From: Microcoleus sp. D2_18a_B4
GTDB lineage: Bacteria > Cyanobacteriota > Cyanobacteriia > Cyanobacteriales > Microcoleaceae
Direction: 5' to 3' (one strand)
NCBI GenBank assembly: GCA_036702475.1
Contig: JAUBTL010000010.1
Length of the DNA: 24,000 bases
Within the stretch, counting starts at the first letter, position 1. Each line of letters opens with the position of its first letter. The notes below the pieces were generated by a model. It searched no databases, had not been told where the DNA came from, and was given only the letters and a program-made list of their open reading frames with translations. The position numbers and the translations under genes are program-made. Positions 6,169 to 19,747 of the stretch are shown here, one piece after another.

Positions 6169-7447
6169 ATGACTCAAGAAAACAACTGGTTTGAGACAGC
6201 ACGATTGGGAATGTTTGTTCATTGGAGTCATAGCAGCCAGTGCGGGTACGAAGTATCAAAGGCGGTTAGTGGGAGGCGTCTTTAGCTTGCCGTACTGCCA
6301 AGATGTCCCGGTAGCCGACTATCACCGCAGCGCCCAAACTTTCAATCCGACTGAATACGACCCTCAAACTTGGGCGCATTTAGCGAAACGCTTGGGGATG
6401 CAGTATGTGATTTTGACGGCTAAACATCATGATGGATTTTCCTTATTTCATACCCAGGAATCCGACTTTTCTATCGAGTATGCGCCGTACAAAAAAGATA
6501 TTGTCCGAGAATTTGTGGAGGCGATGCGGGCGGAGGGTTTGCGAATTGGGTTGTATTTTTCCTTAATTGATTGGCATTACCCTGACTATCCGGCTTTCAC
6601 CGAAGCCGATAAACCGTATCAGTTTGGGAAATTCCGACAGCCGACGACTTCGAGCGTGGGAGCGCTACCTTGAATTTATGTTCGCTCAAGTCAAAGAATT
6701 GTTGAGCAACTACGGAGAGATTGACTTGAAGAGGTTTGATGGCGGTTGGGAGCGAAAGCCAGAGGAATGGCAAGCTAGACAGCTACATGAAATGATTCGC
6801 TCGCTGCAACCGCATTTGCTAATCAACTCACGCCTCAGAGGATTTGGAGACTTCGATACCTGCGAACAATTCATTCCCCCCCAACCGCCTCAACGTACTT
6901 GGGAAGCTTGCCTAACTCTGAATGAAAGCTGGGGTTATAACCCTCTATGACACCCAATTCAAGTCAGCTCGCCAACTTATTCATACCCTCTGTGAAGTTG
7001 CAGGTAAAGGTGGCAATCTGCTGTTGAATGTCAGCCCTATGGGCAACGGGCAGATTCAATCCGAACAATTGGATTTGTTGCAATTCGTAGAAGCATGGAT
7101 GAGTGTCCATGCCCAGAGTATCGTAGGAACACAGCCTGGACTGGAACCTTGGCAATTCTACGGCCCTTCTACTCGGCGGGGCAATCGCTTTTACCTATTC
7201 TTGCTGATGAAGCCCTACGAGTCAGTAACAGTAAGAGGTGTACCCATTAAACGGATTCAAGCCGTTTCTAAAGTCGCTGGAGGGGAATCATTACAATACT
7301 CAACTCGCTGTGCGATTGTCGATTCTATGTTAAGTCCCGATCCAAGGCGGGGAGTTAACGATTCAAGTGCCTGAACAAGCTCTCAATCCCTATGCTACGG
7401 TGATTGCAGTTGATATTGCTCCAGCCAATGATAGAACAAGGATGTAA
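6169..7447 (+). pseudogene. GH29 alpha-L-fucosidase, disrupted by four frameshifts
   Basis: One continuous fucosidase-like protein is split over five reading-frame segments: MTQENNWFETARLGMFVHWSHSSQCGYEVS | LVGGVFSLP...LTAKHHDGFSLFHT...LYFSLIDWHYPDYPAFTEADKPYQFGKFRQPT | WERYLEFMFAQVKELL...WEACLTLNESWGYNP | YDTQFKSARQLIHTLCEVAGKGGNLLLNVSP... | ELTIQVPEQALNPYATVIAVDIAP. The shifts lie at about 6255-6285, 6640-6672, 6935-6950 and 7335-7375. Confidence 0.85.
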
Positions 7448-7974: not shown

Positions 7975-8157
7975 TTAAGGAGACTTTTTCCTTTTTGCCT
8001 CGGCAAGAAGTTTAGCAGTAGAAACATGAGGATGAGCTGGGTCATACGTTGGTTTGGGCTTGGATTTCTTTGGTCCTCGGACTGAAGAAGAAAATCTCTC
8101 AAGTCGTACTTGATTGGCTAAATCGTTTAGGGTGTTGCTAAATTCAGAGATAGTCAT
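7975..8157 (-). CDS. Small hypothetical protein (60 aa), divergent from tnpA; possibly a gene remnant
   Basis: ORF MTISEFSNTLNDLANQV...RGPKKSKPKPTYDPAHPHVSTAKLLAEAKRKKSP. The basic C-terminus resembles transposase tails, but I cannot assign a family. A hairpin (aatccc/gggatt) overlaps its stop. Confidence 0.3.
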   Translation of the reverse strand: MTISEFSNTLNDLANQVRLERFSSSVRGPKKSKPKPTYDPAHPHVSTAKLLAEAKRKKSP

Positions 8158-8191
8158 TTGCTGAAAAATTTGCTATGTTGGTTTGCAAGTA

Positions 8192-8629
8192 ATGACAACT
8201 ATTTACCGCAGGGAACGCCATTCTGTTACAGAACTTAAGATACACTTGGTCTGTGTGACAAAGTATCGTCGGTCTGTCTTCACAGGTGAAAGTATTGATT
8301 TGATTGAAAAGTCGTTTCGAGAGGTGGCTGAAAAAATGAATTTTCAAGTGCTGGAATTCAATGGCGAAGGCAATCATGTTCACGCGCTGATTGAGTATCC
8401 GCCTAAGTTGTTTATCTCTCAAATAGTTAACGCATTAAAAGGCGTTTCTAGCCGTCGTTACGGACAGGCTGGACATAAGAAGCCCCATAAAGAAGCATTG
8501 TGGAGTCCTAGCTATTTTGCTGTTTCTGTAGGGGGTGCGCCCTTAGAAGCTTTAAAGGAGTATATTAGAAATCAAGAAAAGCCGTCCACTGAAGAAGGGG
8601 CTGGTATCCCAATTTCTTGGTCAATCTAA
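8192..8629 (+). CDS. tnpA: IS200/IS605-family Y1 (HUH) transposase TnpA
   Basis: The ~145-aa ORF carries the family hallmarks: LKIHLVCVTKYRRSVF at the N-terminus, the HUH motif in GNHVHALIEYPP, SRRY, LWSPSYFAVSVGGAPLEALKEYI, and the catalytic-Tyr region. ATG at 8192 is the preferred start; the track ORF begins at TTG 8183. Confidence 0.9.
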   Translation: MTTIYRRERHSVTELKIHLVCVTKYRRSVFTGESIDLIEKSFREVAEKMNFQVLEFNGEGNHVHALIEYPPKLFISQIVNALKGVSSRRYGQAGHKKPHKEALWSPSYFAVSVGGAPLEALKEYIRNQEKPSTEEGAGIPISWSI

Positions 8630-11169: not shown

Positions 11170-11781
11170 ATGACTTATCCAGATCGATCGGGCAGTCCAC
11201 TCACTGATCCTACAATCGTCAATCCGCTGGTGGATTACCACGATCAAGTGAGGTGGGGGCCAATTTTGGCAGGAATTGCGATCGCTCTGGGCACTCAACT
11301 AATTTTAAGCGCTTTGGCAATGGCGATCGGATTAACCGCAGGTGCAACAGGCGCGGATGCAGGTTCCGTTGGTTTTGGGGTCGTAATTTGGTCGATTATC
11401 AGTTTGCTGATTTCCCTATTTTTGGGCGGTTGGGTAATGGCTCAAAGCTGCGGGCCGATGACCAAGAAAACAGCATTTTTGAATGCAGCAATTCTTTGGG
11501 GAACTACATTAGCACTTAGTGCTTGGTTATTAGGAAGCGGGATATCGGGTGCTGTTGGCGCTGCGGCTGCTAATGCTGGAGAAATTGCCAATCAAGTACA
11601 ACAACAGGGCGGCGTTAATATACCGAATCAAGCGCCGAATGTAGACCCAAATCAAGTTCGCGATATAGCTGGTAATACAGCTAAAGCTGTTTGGTCATTT
11701 CTACTTGGCTCTTTGCTGGGTTTGGCAGGGGCAATGAGTGGTGCTGCTCTTGGCGCTCGCAAACCTCGCGTTTATGCTTGA
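11170..11781 (+). CDS. Hypothetical integral membrane protein (Gly/Ala-rich, about 4 transmembrane segments)
   Basis: 203-aa ORF with several hydrophobic stretches (ILAGIAIALGTQLILSALAMAIGL; VVIWSIISLLISLFLGGWVMA; AAILWGTTLALSAWLLG; WSFLLGSLLGLAGAMSGAALG). It contains a HIP1 site at 11278-11285, consistent with a native gene. Confidence 0.65.
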   Translation: MTYPDRSGSPLTDPTIVNPLVDYHDQVRWGPILAGIAIALGTQLILSALAMAIGLTAGATGADAGSVGFGVVIWSIISLLISLFLGGWVMAQSCGPMTKKTAFLNAAILWGTTLALSAWLLGSGISGAVGAAAANAGEIANQVQQQGGVNIPNQAPNVDPNQVRDIAGNTAKAVWSFLLGSLLGLAGAMSGAALGARKPRVYA

Positions 11782-11795
11782 TTAGCGGTCAACCA

Positions 11796-11829
11796 CCCAC
11801 CACTAATCGGAGTACCGATATAGTGGGGG
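11796..11829 (+). repeat. Left subterminal imperfect hairpin of the IscB element
   Basis: CCCACCACta-atcgGAGTACcgata-taGTGGGGG. The stem carries a conserved A/G mismatch. Stem and loop core match the hairpin at 13327-13361. Confidence 0.65.
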
Positions 11830-12035
11830 CACAGAAATTGCCAAGTTGACCAGTCTAGGTGTTAAATCACTACGTTTAAGGCAAGTGTTAAAGACCTACC
11901 AGAGAATGCGTTGCTAGTTCTGTGCTCTAGAACTTAAAAGTTAAACAGGTGTAAGGGTTAAGCCAGTGCTTTTAAGATAGTTACCGACCTTAAACATTGA
12001 CGAAGCTAACATTACCCCGAAAGGGAGGACTTAAA
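11829..12035 (+). ncRNA. Candidate IscB omega RNA (HEARO-type scaffold); the 5' end, including the guide, is not resolved and may start further upstream near 11782-11800
   Basis: The 254-nt stretch between the upstream stop (11781) and the iscB ATG has no credible ORF. It contains nested complementary segments: 11829-11836 gcacagaa / 11918-11925 ttctgtgc; 11933-11940 cttaaaag / 11969-11976 cttttaag; 11874-11881 gtttaagg / 11988-11995 ccttaaac (possible pseudoknot); and a CCC-GAAA-GGG tetraloop hairpin at 12016-12025 that runs into the GGAGG Shine-Dalgarno sequence. The position and orientation, immediately 5' of iscB, are those reported for omega/HEARO RNAs. Confidence 0.6.
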
Positions 12036-13307
12036 ATGTCTAACTTTGTTTTTGTACTAGATACCCAAAAACGACCGCTCAATCCAATCCACCCAGGAAT
12101 GGCCCGTAAATTGCTAACTAATGGCAAAGCTGCTGTTTTTAAAAGGTATCCATTCACACTAATTCTCAAGGTAGAGGTGACAGCAACCCAAAAACCAATC
12201 ACTCTCAAAATAGACCCTGGCTCTCAAACCACTGGATTCGCATTACTGCAACGAGAAAAAGTAATCTTTGGTGCCGAACTAACTCACCGAGGTCAAGCTA
12301 TTAAAGCCAGCCTTGAATCTCGTCGTTCATTGCGTAGAGTCCGGAGGAATCGCCATACTCGCTATCGTCCAGCTAGATTCCTAAATAGAACTCGCCTTAA
12401 AGGTTGGCTAGCCCCAAGTTTGCAACATCGCGTTGAAACAACTATAACATGGGTGACTAAATTGATGAAAGTAGCCCCCATTGTTTCTATTGTTCAAGAA
12501 CTTGTGCGGTTTGACTTACAACAATTAGAAAACCCGGAAATTTCTGGAATCGAGTACCAACAAGGCGTTTTGTGTGGCTACGAGGTTCGCGAATACTTGC
12601 TCAACAAATGGGAGAGAAAGTGTGCTTACTGTGGTGTTACAAATACACCATTACAAGTCGAACATATTCATCCTAAAGCTAAGGGTGGTTCTAATCGTAT
12701 TTCTAATCTTTGCCTTGCTTGTGAAAAGTGCAATATCAAGAAAGGAACTCAAAATATAGAGCAATTCCTGTCTAAAAAGCCAGAGGTTTTAAAACGGGTT
12801 TTGTCTCAAGCAAAGCGTTCTTTAAAAGATGCGACAGCAGTCAATTCAACTCGTTGGGCATTATTTAATCGGCTTAGCATGATTGGTTTGCCTGTTTCTA
12901 CTGGCAGTGGTGGCTTAACAAAGTTCAATCGCACTCGATTAAGTCTAGCTAAAACTCACTGGTTAGATGCAGCTTGTGTAGGGAACGTTGAATCGCTGAA
13001 AATTTTAACAAACAAGCCGTTGTTAATTAAAGCTACTGGGCATGGGACGCGCCAAATGTGTCGTACCGATAAGTTTGGATTTCCATGTCGCTATGTTCCC
13101 CGGCTTAAGTTTGTTAAAGGTTTTCAAACTGGAGATATTGTCAAAGCAATCGTTACTTCTGGCAAGAAAGTTGGTAAATATGTTGGGCGTGTTGCCGTTA
13201 GAACGAGTGGTTCATTTAATATTGCCGCATCAGAATTGGTGTCAGGGGTTAGCCACAAATATTGTTCAATTATTCACAGAAAGGATGGTTATTCGTATGC
13301 AGCATAA
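12036..13307 (+). CDS. iscB: IscB, RNA-guided DNA endonuclease of the OMEGA family (split RuvC with inserted HNH; Cas9-ancestor type)
   Basis: 423 aa counted from ATG 12036, with GGAGG 7 nt upstream; the track's TTG 11997 start adds 13 aa that I consider unlikely. The domain order is complete: PLMP-like N-terminus (VFVLDTQKRPLNPIHPGMARKLL...AAVFKRYPFTLIL); RuvC-I (KIDPGSQTTGFALL); Arg-rich bridge helix (SRRSLRRVRRNRHTRYRPARFLNR); RuvC-II (IVQELVRFDLQ...GIEYQQG); HNH (CAYCG...LQVEHIHPKAKGGSNRISNLCLACEKCNIKKG); RuvC-III (THWLDAACVG); and a C-terminal TAM-interaction-like domain (GFQTGDIVKA...GKYVGRVAVRTSGSFNI). Confidence 0.9.
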   Translation: MSNFVFVLDTQKRPLNPIHPGMARKLLTNGKAAVFKRYPFTLILKVEVTATQKPITLKIDPGSQTTGFALLQREKVIFGAELTHRGQAIKASLESRRSLRRVRRNRHTRYRPARFLNRTRLKGWLAPSLQHRVETTITWVTKLMKVAPIVSIVQELVRFDLQQLENPEISGIEYQQGVLCGYEVREYLLNKWERKCAYCGVTNTPLQVEHIHPKAKGGSNRISNLCLACEKCNIKKGTQNIEQFLSKKPEVLKRVLSQAKRSLKDATAVNSTRWALFNRLSMIGLPVSTGSGGLTKFNRTRLSLAKTHWLDAACVGNVESLKILTNKPLLIKATGHGTRQMCRTDKFGFPCRYVPRLKFVKGFQTGDIVKAIVTSGKKVGKYVGRVAVRTSGSFNIAASELVSGVSHKYCSIIHRKDGYSYAA

Positions 13308-13313
13308 ACCTTG

Positions 13314-13374
13314 CCCCCCTTGGACTCCCACCACGCTCCCTGAGTACAGGTGAGCGTGGGGGTCTCCAAGGGGG
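13314..13374 (+). repeat. Right subterminal hairpin of the IscB element (may double as the iscB terminator)
   Basis: The inner stem-loop CCCACCACgctc-cctGAGTACaggt-gagcGTGGGGG (13327-13361) is homologous to 11796-11829. It is extended by an outer stem cccccttggac / gtctccaaggggg. It starts 7 nt after the iscB stop. Confidence 0.65.
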
Positions 13375-13442
13375 AAGACAGATGAACGAGCTAAAAACCT
13401 TTTATAAGGTTTGGGCATAGAGATTTAAAAGAAGATGAAGCG

Positions 13443-13994
13443 ATGCAACAGCAGAGGATCTGGCAAAAATATACAAGGTTAACAAGTTCGATCTTGTTAA
13501 CGGCAACGGTTTTAGTTGCTCCCTCGTTCGCCGCTGATAGAAATCAAAAACAGATTCAAGGTGAATCTTTACTAGCGCAAGTACCCGATAGCTGTCGCCA
13601 GGTTATTGCGAGGAATGGTCTTAATGTTCGGCGACAACCGACGGCTAACAGCGAAGCGGTTGGCACCATCGGTTCCGCACGAAATGTGACGATTCAAAGT
13701 CTTGGTGAGAATGGCTGGGTACCAATTACAGCCCCGCTACAAGGCTACGTATATGGTGGTTTTCTCGGATTGTGTGAAGCCGCAACCGCCCCGCCTCCTA
13801 CTAACTGCCGCCAAGTTGCAGCCGCCAGAGGAATTAACGTACATCAAGCACCTTCCACTGATGGGGAAAGGGTTGGAGTCGTCGCGAGTGGACGAAGAGT
13901 GACGATTGAAAGTTTAGGAACGGATGGTTGGGTGCCGATTACAGTGCCTGTGAGAGGCTACTTCCAAACTGAAAACCGGGCGTATTGTAGTTAA
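13443..13994 (+). CDS. Secreted protein with two bacterial SH3 (SH3b) repeats
   Basis: 183-aa ORF with a signal-like N-terminus (LTSSILLTATVLVAPSFA). It has an internal duplication: CRQVIARNGLNVRRQPTANSEAVGTIGSARNVTIQSLGENGWVPITAPLQGYV and CRQVAAARGINVHQAPSTDGERVGVVASGRRVTIESLGTDGWVPITVPVRGYF. Confidence 0.8.
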   Translation: MQQQRIWQKYTRLTSSILLTATVLVAPSFAADRNQKQIQGESLLAQVPDSCRQVIARNGLNVRRQPTANSEAVGTIGSARNVTIQSLGENGWVPITAPLQGYVYGGFLGLCEAATAPPPTNCRQVAAARGINVHQAPSTDGERVGVVASGRRVTIESLGTDGWVPITVPVRGYFQTENRAYCS

Positions 13995-15130
13995 TGGAAA
14001 AAACAGTGATGGATCACCAATCAAAGCCAAAAAAAGAAACTAATTCACAGCAAAAGTCTGGTTGGTTAAATTTCATTGCCGAGACAACAGAATCTGCACT
14101 GAATACAGGCAAAGCGGTTGTTGAAACAGCAGTTAATTGGGGGGAAGCTGCTGCTAAACAAACTTATCGATTGATTGGACAAGCGACGCAAGGAACCGGA
14201 GATGCGGTAACTTATGTTGGCAATTTTCCCTTTGTTAAACAAGTGGCAGGGGTACTCAGGCTTGATTGGTTAGTTGGGGTCAGCGATCGCATCGACTTAG
14301 CTAAAGCCGAAGCTCAAGTCAAGGAACTCCAACAAAAGTATCCCAATGAATATCCCAGCGAAATTGCCCATCGCATTATGGTGGAAAAAGCGATTCACGC
14401 CGGTGGTGTTGGATTTGCTAGCAGCATTTTACCCGGTGTCGCGGCTGCACTGCTGGCGATCGATCTAGCCGCGACTACTGCGATTCAAACCGAAATGGTT
14501 TATGAAATTGCCGCCGCTTATGGGATGAATTTGCAAGAGCCAGCCCGAAAAGGCGAGGTTTTGGCAATTTTTGGGTTAGCGCTAGGCGGTAGCAACGCAA
14601 TGAAAGCTGGTTTGGGCTTTTTACGCAACGTACCGCTGGCTGGCGCGATGATTGGTGCGAGTACGAATGCTACGATGCTGTACGCGCTGGGATATGCGGC
14701 GCGCCAGTTTTACGAAGCCAAACTGAGGGAAGATACTGAAGAACCTGGAACCGAAACGCTGCAAGCGATCCAGCAACAAAGCGAGAAATATCTCGATGTT
14801 GCGATCGCGCAGCAAGCAGGGATGGATCAAATTATGGTTCACATGATTTTGGCAAGTTATCCCAACAAAAACTGGGAAGATATTCTGCCAGAATTGAAGG
14901 CATTGCAATTAAATGCGGATTCTCTCAAAAGGATTGCTGCTAACATCAAGTCCCCTAAACCATTGGGTGCATTGTTAGAGCAACTTAACCCCGACTTTGC
15001 AGTACCGCTATTAGCTCAATGCCGTCGCATTGCCGAAAATAGCGGAGAGGTTTCCGAAGCAGAACAGAAGGTGCTGGATGCGATCGCACAAAAACTCAAC
15101 GGTCAAGATGTGGCTTCGATATCCGCTTGA
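13994..15130 (+). CDS. EcsC/DUF697-like protein with a C-terminal helical (TerB-like) region; function unknown
   Basis: 378-aa ORF. Its start overlaps the preceding stop (TAATG at 13992-13996). The core GGVGFASSILPGVAAALLAIDLAATTAIQTEMVYEIAAAYGMNL...EVLAIFGLALGG resembles the EcsC/DUF697 type. It contains three HIP1 sites. The start could be the downstream Met at 14009. Confidence 0.7.
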   Translation: MEKTVMDHQSKPKKETNSQQKSGWLNFIAETTESALNTGKAVVETAVNWGEAAAKQTYRLIGQATQGTGDAVTYVGNFPFVKQVAGVLRLDWLVGVSDRIDLAKAEAQVKELQQKYPNEYPSEIAHRIMVEKAIHAGGVGFASSILPGVAAALLAIDLAATTAIQTEMVYEIAAAYGMNLQEPARKGEVLAIFGLALGGSNAMKAGLGFLRNVPLAGAMIGASTNATMLYALGYAARQFYEAKLREDTEEPGTETLQAIQQQSEKYLDVAIAQQAGMDQIMVHMILASYPNKNWEDILPELKALQLNADSLKRIAANIKSPKPLGALLEQLNPDFAVPLLAQCRRIAENSGEVSEAEQKVLDAIAQKLNGQDVASISA

Positions 15131-19638: not shown

Positions 19639-19747
19639 TTTAAGGGCGGGCTCTCCTGCCCAACCCCTACTCCCCACAATAAAATTTACTCTTTAAGGGC
19701 GGGCTCTCCTGCCCAACCCCTACTCCCCACAATAAAATTTACTCTTT
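19639..19747. repeat. Perfect 53-bp tandem duplication in the kinase-PHP intergenic region
   Basis: The unit aagggcgggctctcctgcccaacccctactccccacaataaaatttactcttt is found at 19642-19694 and 19695-19747, preceded by a matching ttt. The unit length is not a multiple of 3. Confidence 0.9.

Follow-up and report, generated by a model that had tools for sequence, protein, structure and literature searches.

The iscB gene and its omegaRNA

The window considered here, a stretch of 24,000 nucleotides (nt) from contig JAUBTL010000010.1 of the cyanobacterium Microcoleus sp. D2_18a_B4 (assembly GCA_036702475.1), contains an iscB gene (12036..13307, + strand) that directly follows an omegaRNA scaffold (11788..12035, +), both enclosed in a mobile unit of 1,594 bp of the non-autonomous IS200/IS605 type (11788..13381, +). 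The gene is an unbroken frame of 423 codons with a ribosome binding site (RBS; GGGAGGA, 12023-12029) seven bases 5' of its ATG. Because close homologues are almost all 423 amino acids (aa) long, the ATG at 12036 is the start codon, rather than an alternative TTG at 11997 that would give a longer reading. The encoded protein begins with a PLMP-like N-terminus, followed by RuvC-I (D60), a bridge helix, RuvC-II (E155), the HNH domain (C196/C199/C229/C232, H210, N224 and N233), RuvC-III (H308, D311) and a beta-rich C-terminal domain. An earlier note, made from the nucleotide sequence alone, had described a 423-aa open reading frame (ORF) at this place with the motifs PLNP, IDPGS including D60, an Arg-rich helix, E155, CAYC/CEKC, VEHIHP and HWLDAAC including H308/D311, and both the frame and all of these motifs are present as described.

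Profile searches, alignment, conservation and fold matches all assign the protein to IscB. It matches the NCBIfam equivalog NF040563 'RNA-guided endonuclease IscB' (guided_IscB) over residues 5-316 with 462.7 bits against a cut-off of 175, and Pfam RRXRR (PF14239) over residues 5-177 (245.8 bits, 3.1e-73), while Pfam HNH and HNH_5 match residues 196-246, between E155 and H308. Since an HNH domain is present, the protein is an IscB and not an IsrB, which lacks this domain. The best sequence matches in the PDB are likewise IscB proteins, namely TbaIscB (9k30), OgeuIscB (7xht/7utn/8csz), HfmIscB (9k2z) and 9liq, with E values from 1e-37 to 1e-26, and are followed by IsrB, Cas9d and Cas9. The NCBIfam models of Cas9d and Cas9 match only partially, over the HNH segment, with scores of 41 against a cut-off of 375 and 12 against 100 (TIGR01865, 11.7 bits). 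The distance from RuvC-I to RuvC-II is only about 95 residues and the protein has no recognition (REC) lobe, in line with the small size that the earlier note had emphasized.

In a HMMER alignment, D60, E155, H210, H308 and D311 lie opposite D61, E193, H247, H340 and D343 of OgeuIscB (7xht), which are the catalytic residues of its RuvC (D61/E193/H340/D343) and HNH (H247) domains (Kato et al., PMC9640706), and PLNP at residues 14-17 lies opposite the OgeuIscB PLMP motif. Substitution of D60, E155, H308 or D311, which had been named beforehand as a reason to doubt the enzyme, was thus not found. Among 71 homologues with 58-91 % identity, E155, H210, C196, C229, C232, N224 and N233 are invariant, and D60, C199, H308 and D311 are at least 90 % conserved. 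The ratio of nonsynonymous to synonymous substitution rates (dN/dS) was 0.07-0.16 in comparison with intact copies and 0.07-0.09 among orthologous copies, and values of about 0.1 indicate that the protein is under purifying selection. Elsewhere in the family, the iscB frame is disrupted by stop codons in the related loci L020 (codon 25), L077 (codon 386), L038 and L021 (both codon 405), and reads through to codon 447 in L026, so that the family holds decaying iscB copies beside intact ones.

For the structural comparison we used an AlphaFold model based on 71 sequences down to 58 % identity, which reached a predicted local distance difference test (pLDDT) of 69 and a predicted template modelling score of 0.51; a shallower alignment of 29 close homologues gave an unusable model (pLDDT 45). 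In a Foldseek search of the PDB with the former model, the top ten matches were IscB-omegaRNA complexes (8csz with 4.1e-22, then 9liq, 9nvu, 9k30 and 7xht), and Cas9d and Cas9 ranked after them. The TM-scores of 0.4-0.46 are modest, as expected for a multi-domain model without its RNA and DNA partners. In its C-terminal part, the model contains a beta-rich domain at residues 357-418 with pLDDT values of 82-89, which may represent the domain interacting with the target-adjacent motif (TAM). The profile search against solved IscB proteins stops at about residue 343 with no sequence match beyond, and the C-terminal 108 aa alone found no match among PDB sequences even at E = 10.

The RNA partner is encoded directly upstream. 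HEARO (RF02033), the RNA now named IscB omegaRNA (bioRxiv 10.1101/2023.03.14.532601; PMC9755519), matches at 11788..12015 (+) with 130.6 bits against a gathering score of 83, covers model positions 1-211 of 211 and ends 20 nt before the iscB ATG. It is the sole gathering-level Rfam match in the 24 kb and bears out the previously suggested combination of IscB with an omegaRNA in an OMEGA system. In an alignment of 13 diverse copies, compensatory changes were found in 37 of 61 predicted base pairs. The remainder of the scaffold consists of a short GNRA hairpin (CCC-GAAA-GGG, 12016-12025) and the RBS. This hairpin lies just past the end of the Rfam model, overlaps the RBS of iscB and covaries across copies; it may be a 3' portion of the omegaRNA or influence the translation of iscB.

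The predicted guide of the omegaRNA is the flanking sequence of about 16 nt, TTATGCTTGATTAGCG, at 11772..11787 (+), directly 5' of HEARO position 1, where the length of 16 nt is the literature value. It overlaps with the stop codon of the gene upstream and is found at no other place in the window; paralogous copies show no conservation at this position. Transcription of the omegaRNA probably proceeds by read-through from the upstream gene, because this gene has the same orientation, the element starts six bases 3' of its stop codon and no promoter-like site lies between them. A promoter scan gave nothing above the expectation from shuffled sequence.

Two of the related loci deviate in their HEARO. 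In the copy at L005:2697-2981, from a metagenome-assembled genome (MAG), HEARO comprises 285 nt, compared to the usual length of about 228 nt, and the orthologous L006 does not have the extra length. According to the BLAST pieces, some 50 nt in the 5' part of this omegaRNA seem to be duplicated in tandem, either genuinely or through an error of assembly. At a locus of Planktothrix sp. PCC 11201, two complete HEARO sequences face away from each other on opposite strands (L034:2042-2258, -, and 2756-2978, +) with a spacing of about 500 nt, so that two elements are arranged head to head.

The mobile unit, its ends and its empty site

One genome per species was scanned, which gave 226 relatives; 80 loci were kept from these, nearly all from Microcoleus and other filamentous cyanobacteria. 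Paralogous copies with unrelated flanks occupy about 20 unrelated sites at a nucleotide identity of 84-96 %, at least six of them in one MAG, and align to the window exactly from 11788 to 13385/6. The ends are sharp in more than 20 paralogous copies: nothing is conserved 5' of 11788, and the right side reads ...AG-ATGA-N. Empty alleles (see below) place the left edge exactly at 11787|11788 (L081, L084-L089) and show that the terminal ATGAA at 13382..13386 (+) is part of the target and not of the element. The ATGA is invariant at 20 independent right junctions, where it is followed by A (13 junctions), C (4) or G (3), but never by T. From these junctions, the empty alleles and the likeness to GstIscB of Geobacillus stearothermophilus, ATGAA (TTCAT on the other strand) is predicted to be both the TAM and the target motif of the transposase TnpA.

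Both ends carry subterminal hairpins. The hairpin at the omegaRNA end (right end, RE, in TnpA terms; 11796..11829, +) has the sequence CCCACCAC-TAATCGGAGTACCGATATA-GTGGGGG and was found by pattern search, with AU/GC covariation across copies. The hairpin at the far end (left end, LE, in TnpA terms; 13315..13374, +) has a predicted DNA folding energy of -28.9 kcal/mol (z = -7.6) and is conserved with covariation in 24 copies; its inner stem at 13327-13362, CCCACCAC..GAGTAC..GTGGGGG, is similar to the omegaRNA-end hairpin. For the pattern CCCACCRC..GYGGGGG, the window has exactly two occurrences, one close to each end, compared to an expectation of 0.01. With defined ends, subterminal hairpins and an adjoining short motif, and with neither terminal inverted repeats nor a target duplication, the unit has the features of a non-autonomous IS200/IS605 element. 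The transposon-like hairpin ends seen in the earlier note are hence genuine and its unit of about 1.6 kb is confirmed by the paralogous copies, but the edges of the element are 11788 and 13381 and not 11782 and 13390. The predicted guide, at approximately 11772-11787, lies outside the element given in the earlier note.

In Microcoleus sp. Pol10D4 (L001) and AT8-B5 (L016), both flanks of the element are 92-96 % identical to the window, and these two sister genomes and the window share the same insertion, which assigns the window to Microcoleus as well. IscB orthologues with 98-99 % identity are found at the same site in public Microcoleus genomes. Pol10D4 contains in addition a second, divergent HEARO with iscB (L001:6046-7269, Rfam 116.8 bits, nucleotide identity about 64 %), which interrupts an EcsC-like gene in its 3' end; the corresponding gene of the window (13994..15130) is uninterrupted at about 15085.

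Nine metagenome contigs were found with a degenerate pattern representing the final nine codons of the upstream gene; one of them is occupied (L083) and eight are empty (L081, L082, L084-L089). The empty alleles read ...TTATGCTTGATTAGCG|ATGATAAAACC...(86 nt)...GGAGAAG|ATGAACGAGC, and thus contain a perfect match to the 16 nt 5' of the omegaRNA, followed by ATGAT. A match to the guide followed by ATGA in the empty allele is what the published model of cutting the empty site and copying the element back predicts. An exact pattern joining both flanks of the element found no empty site, because the real empty allele has 86 extra nt. Given the many copies at unrelated sites and the existence of natural empty alleles, the unit is mobile, or was so recently.

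Interpretation and alternative explanations

We consider it highly probable (about 0.9) that the locus is a non-autonomous insertion sequence of the IS200/IS605 family, approximately 1.6 kb long, with an intact iscB and an upstream omegaRNA on the same strand, and represents a standard OMEGA system in a cyanobacterial chromosome of the Microcoleus type. In the proposed mechanism, the omegaRNA would be transcribed by read-through from the co-oriented upstream gene, and its 5' terminal 16 nt or so, copied from the flank, would serve as guide. The element would be excised in single-stranded form by a Y1 TnpA from another locus, and the guide-matching flank would thereby be rejoined to ATGA. In the empty site, IscB-omegaRNA would then recognize the protospacer with its 3' TAM, and RuvC and HNH would cleave the two strands, after which recombination with an element-bearing copy would restore the element. 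This sequence, in which the empty site is cleaved under RNA guidance and the element is restored by recombination, follows by analogy the model published for GstIscB, in which HEARO is bounded by the transposon RE and the guide derives from the flank (Meers et al., bioRxiv 10.1101/2023.03.14.532601). For GstIscB, the TAM is TTCAT, and TnpA and IscB read the same motif; moreover, iscB is rarely found beside tnpA (approximately 1.5 %), and iscB insertions preferentially have the same orientation as the gene upstream of them (Meers et al., bioRxiv 10.1101/2023.03.14.532601). All four published features, the RE-bounded HEARO, the TTCAT TAM, the rarity of tnpA and the orientation bias, fit the locus. 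Read on the opposite strand, the GstIscB motif is identical to our ATGAA, with the difference that it is a reported TAM, whereas ours was read from junctions. Both elements are of the non-autonomous IS200/IS605 type with an RE-bounded omegaRNA 5' of iscB, a flank-derived guide and the orientation of the upstream gene, but they belong to different phyla, and the partner TnpA was not identified in our case.

A distinctly less probable explanation is that the nuclease is intact, but that this copy has been stranded without a matching TnpA and is maintained by inheritance independent of IscB or by use for the host, for example in defence or regulation. The insertion is common to the window, L001, L016 and L083 at the identical site, with flanks that have diverged by 4-8 %, the orthologous copies are under purifying selection at the dN/dS values given above, and no tnpA adjoins any of the 80 loci, all of which would agree with a stranded copy. 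However, the presence of closely similar copies at about 20 unrelated sites, several of them in a single MAG, points to transposition in the fairly recent past. The hairpins at both ends and the TAM are also intact, and iscB usually has no tnpA next to it (Meers et al., bioRxiv 10.1101/2023.03.14.532601). Also against a stranded copy, the PADLOC matches are at the level of the HNH domain only. That the copy is decayed or inactive and merely looks intact is very improbable: the family does contain the broken members L020, L077, L038, L021 and L026, but the copy in the window retains the full frame of 423 codons, all catalytic and zinc residues, an omegaRNA well above the gathering score and a low dN/dS.

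Two other identities of the nuclease have next to no probability. Homologues are labelled '5-methylcytosine-specific restriction endonuclease McrA' by the Joint Genome Institute and HNH families of Pfam match, which might suggest an ordinary HNH/McrA-type restriction endonuclease. This is refuted by the extent of the HNH domain, which comprises only residues 184-254 or so while the rest is RRXRR and split RuvC with an end-to-end match to the IscB equivalog, as well as by the matching IscB structures and the HEARO RNA upstream; the profile search suggested in the earlier note thus decided for IscB and against a plain HNH/McrA enzyme. Similarly, the weak partial matches of the Cas9d and Cas9 models over the HNH region could point to a miniature CRISPR-associated Cas9, either Cas9d or a CRISPR-associated IscB, with its array outside the element. 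Within the window this is refuted by scores far below the cut-offs and by the lack of an array and of cas genes in the 24 kb: no CRISPR-like array was found, and none of the ORFs scanned with Pfam or PADLOC matched a Cas family, so that the earlier statement that repeat-spacer arrays and cas1/cas2 are missing was correct for the window and the protein does not qualify as a type II effector. It is also at variance with a protein of 423 aa without REC lobe and with a guide RNA that is a HEARO/omegaRNA fused to a flank-derived guide.

Returning to the standard OMEGA system, four observations weigh against it. The last 80 residues or so have no sequence match to the TAM-interacting domains of solved IscB proteins, and their fold was seen in one model of medium confidence. 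The cognate TnpA was not identified: the only tnpA of the window has no end sequences in common with the element, and none was found within 3 kb of the 80 related loci. The motif at the guide junction of the empty allele is ATGAT, although T never occurs as fifth base at the 20 other junctions. Finally, the occupied allele is not the product of a simple insertion, because the 86 nt of target DNA mentioned above are missing in comparison to the empty allele, which requires at least one extra event in its history.

The missing 86 nt extend from the first ATGA (ATGAT, after the guide match) to the last ATGA (ATGAA, before CGAGC) and correspond to L081:4339-4424, L084:466-551 and L088:658-743 (ATGATAAAACC...GGAGAAG). 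This DNA is ancestral, because the more distant empty alleles L082 and L086 keep a similar stretch. A comparable loss was observed at a second locus, where L012, L013 and L038 have 46 nt (ATGAAggcc...gggaaaaa; L013:2707-2752) abutting the omegaRNA end, whereas the orthologous L015 lacks exactly those 46 nt (L015:2752|2753), with no microhomology at the junctions. This loss would give the omegaRNA of L015 a different guide. In L072, which is orthologous to the L015 locus, about 100 nt of unrelated repetitive sequence are located at the same place. Tentatively, and with a rather low likelihood, the flank losses might be products of the transposase, with TnpA cutting at the omegaRNA-side end and after the next downstream TCAT, so that the DNA between leaves as a circle. 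Homologous recombination collapsing two copies inserted at neighbouring TAMs is a possible alternative route, as is slippage between AGATGA repeats for the locus in the window only. In a limited literature search, we found no paper containing the phrase 'adjacent deletion' together with IS608/TnpA. If removal of flanks by TnpA were true, it would fuse the omegaRNA to a new flank and amount to a natural re-programming of OMEGA guides in place. The TAM-bounded losses are therefore of potential interest for the question how OMEGA guides change.

Related systems and the surroundings of the element

The closest known systems are the cyanobacterial HEARO/IscB elements (RF02033; NF040563), for example of Microcoleus, Kamptonema, Tychonema and Nostoc, which have the same protein length, domain order, omegaRNA, ends and multi-copy spread. 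At E < 1e-20, the databases contain more than 8,000 matching proteins, and the close relatives, with 80-91 % identity (98-99 % for orthologous copies), carry the NCBI name 'RNA-guided endonuclease IscB'; for the RNA, Rfam keeps a separate curated family. Nothing of substance differs in the element described here, which has its own flank-derived guide and insertion site. OgeuIscB (7xht, 7utn, 8csz) belongs to the same fold family and shares the catalytic residues and the PLMP-type motif, but is longer (496 compared to 423 aa) and only about 20 % identical in the structural alignment, and the C-terminal domains of the two proteins do not align by sequence. The published TAM of OgeuIscB is NWRRNA (PMC12660989), in contrast to the ATGA(A) predicted here. 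With Cas9 and Cas9d, the protein has in common the split RuvC with inserted HNH, the bridge helix and a descent from RNA-guided DNA nucleases, whereas a REC lobe, a CRISPR array and cas1/cas2 are lacking and the guide is supplied by a single long omegaRNA tied to a transposon end.

The locus thus carries a familiar mobile element, in a copy that is intact but in no way unusual and of a type already named in public annotation. The earlier note had ranked it as the most noteworthy system in the window, which is far too high an estimate for a routine member of a very large, annotated cyanobacterial family with the same insertion in public Microcoleus genomes. IscB-omegaRNA systems, the HEARO RNA, their transposon context and their homing role have been published, and the subfamily is annotated in dozens of Microcoleus genomes. 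Of modest value is the clean natural illustration that is provided by occupied and empty alleles of one site in public data. The empty allele combines an exact guide match with a TAM-like motif, and the predicted TAM, ATGAA/TTCAT, is simple and has been measured for a distant relative.

The element lies between an upstream ORF of 203 aa without Pfam match, which the earlier note had taken for a membrane-protein gene, and, on the other side, a gene for an SH3_3-domain protein, in agreement with the SH3b gene previously noted downstream. At a distance of 3.2 kb upstream of the element, the window contains an intact-looking tnpA for an IS200-type Y1 transposase (8183..8629, +; Pfam Y1_Tnp 1.3e-36), with a hairpin at 8153-8196 that spans its start. 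As a demonstrated partner of the element this gene was rejected, since the two share no end sequences and no CCCACCRC-type hairpins occur near it; a tblastn search with its product against the 80 related loci gave no match. A synteny break is located at 8619|8620, exactly at the 3' end of the tnpA ORF, so that the last tnpA codons are read from native sequence. To the left of this native sequence (GTCAAT...), L081, L083, L087 and L089 have the end of a gene of the GH13 alpha-amylase family (Pfam Alpha-amylase 1.2e-61, L083:1-1416), where the window has tnpA. Beside the tnpA region, 6191..7374 (+) comprises three overlapping ORFs (6191-6673, 6567-6950 and 6922-7374). A scan of the first and the third gave matches to parts of Pfam Alpha_L_fucos, and judged from these matches, the region looks like a frameshifted alpha-L-fucosidase pseudogene. 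On the other side of the element, a perfect tandem duplication of 53 nt (2.1 copies, 100 % identical) occupies positions 19639-19747 in the intergenic region after a Ser/Thr kinase gene.

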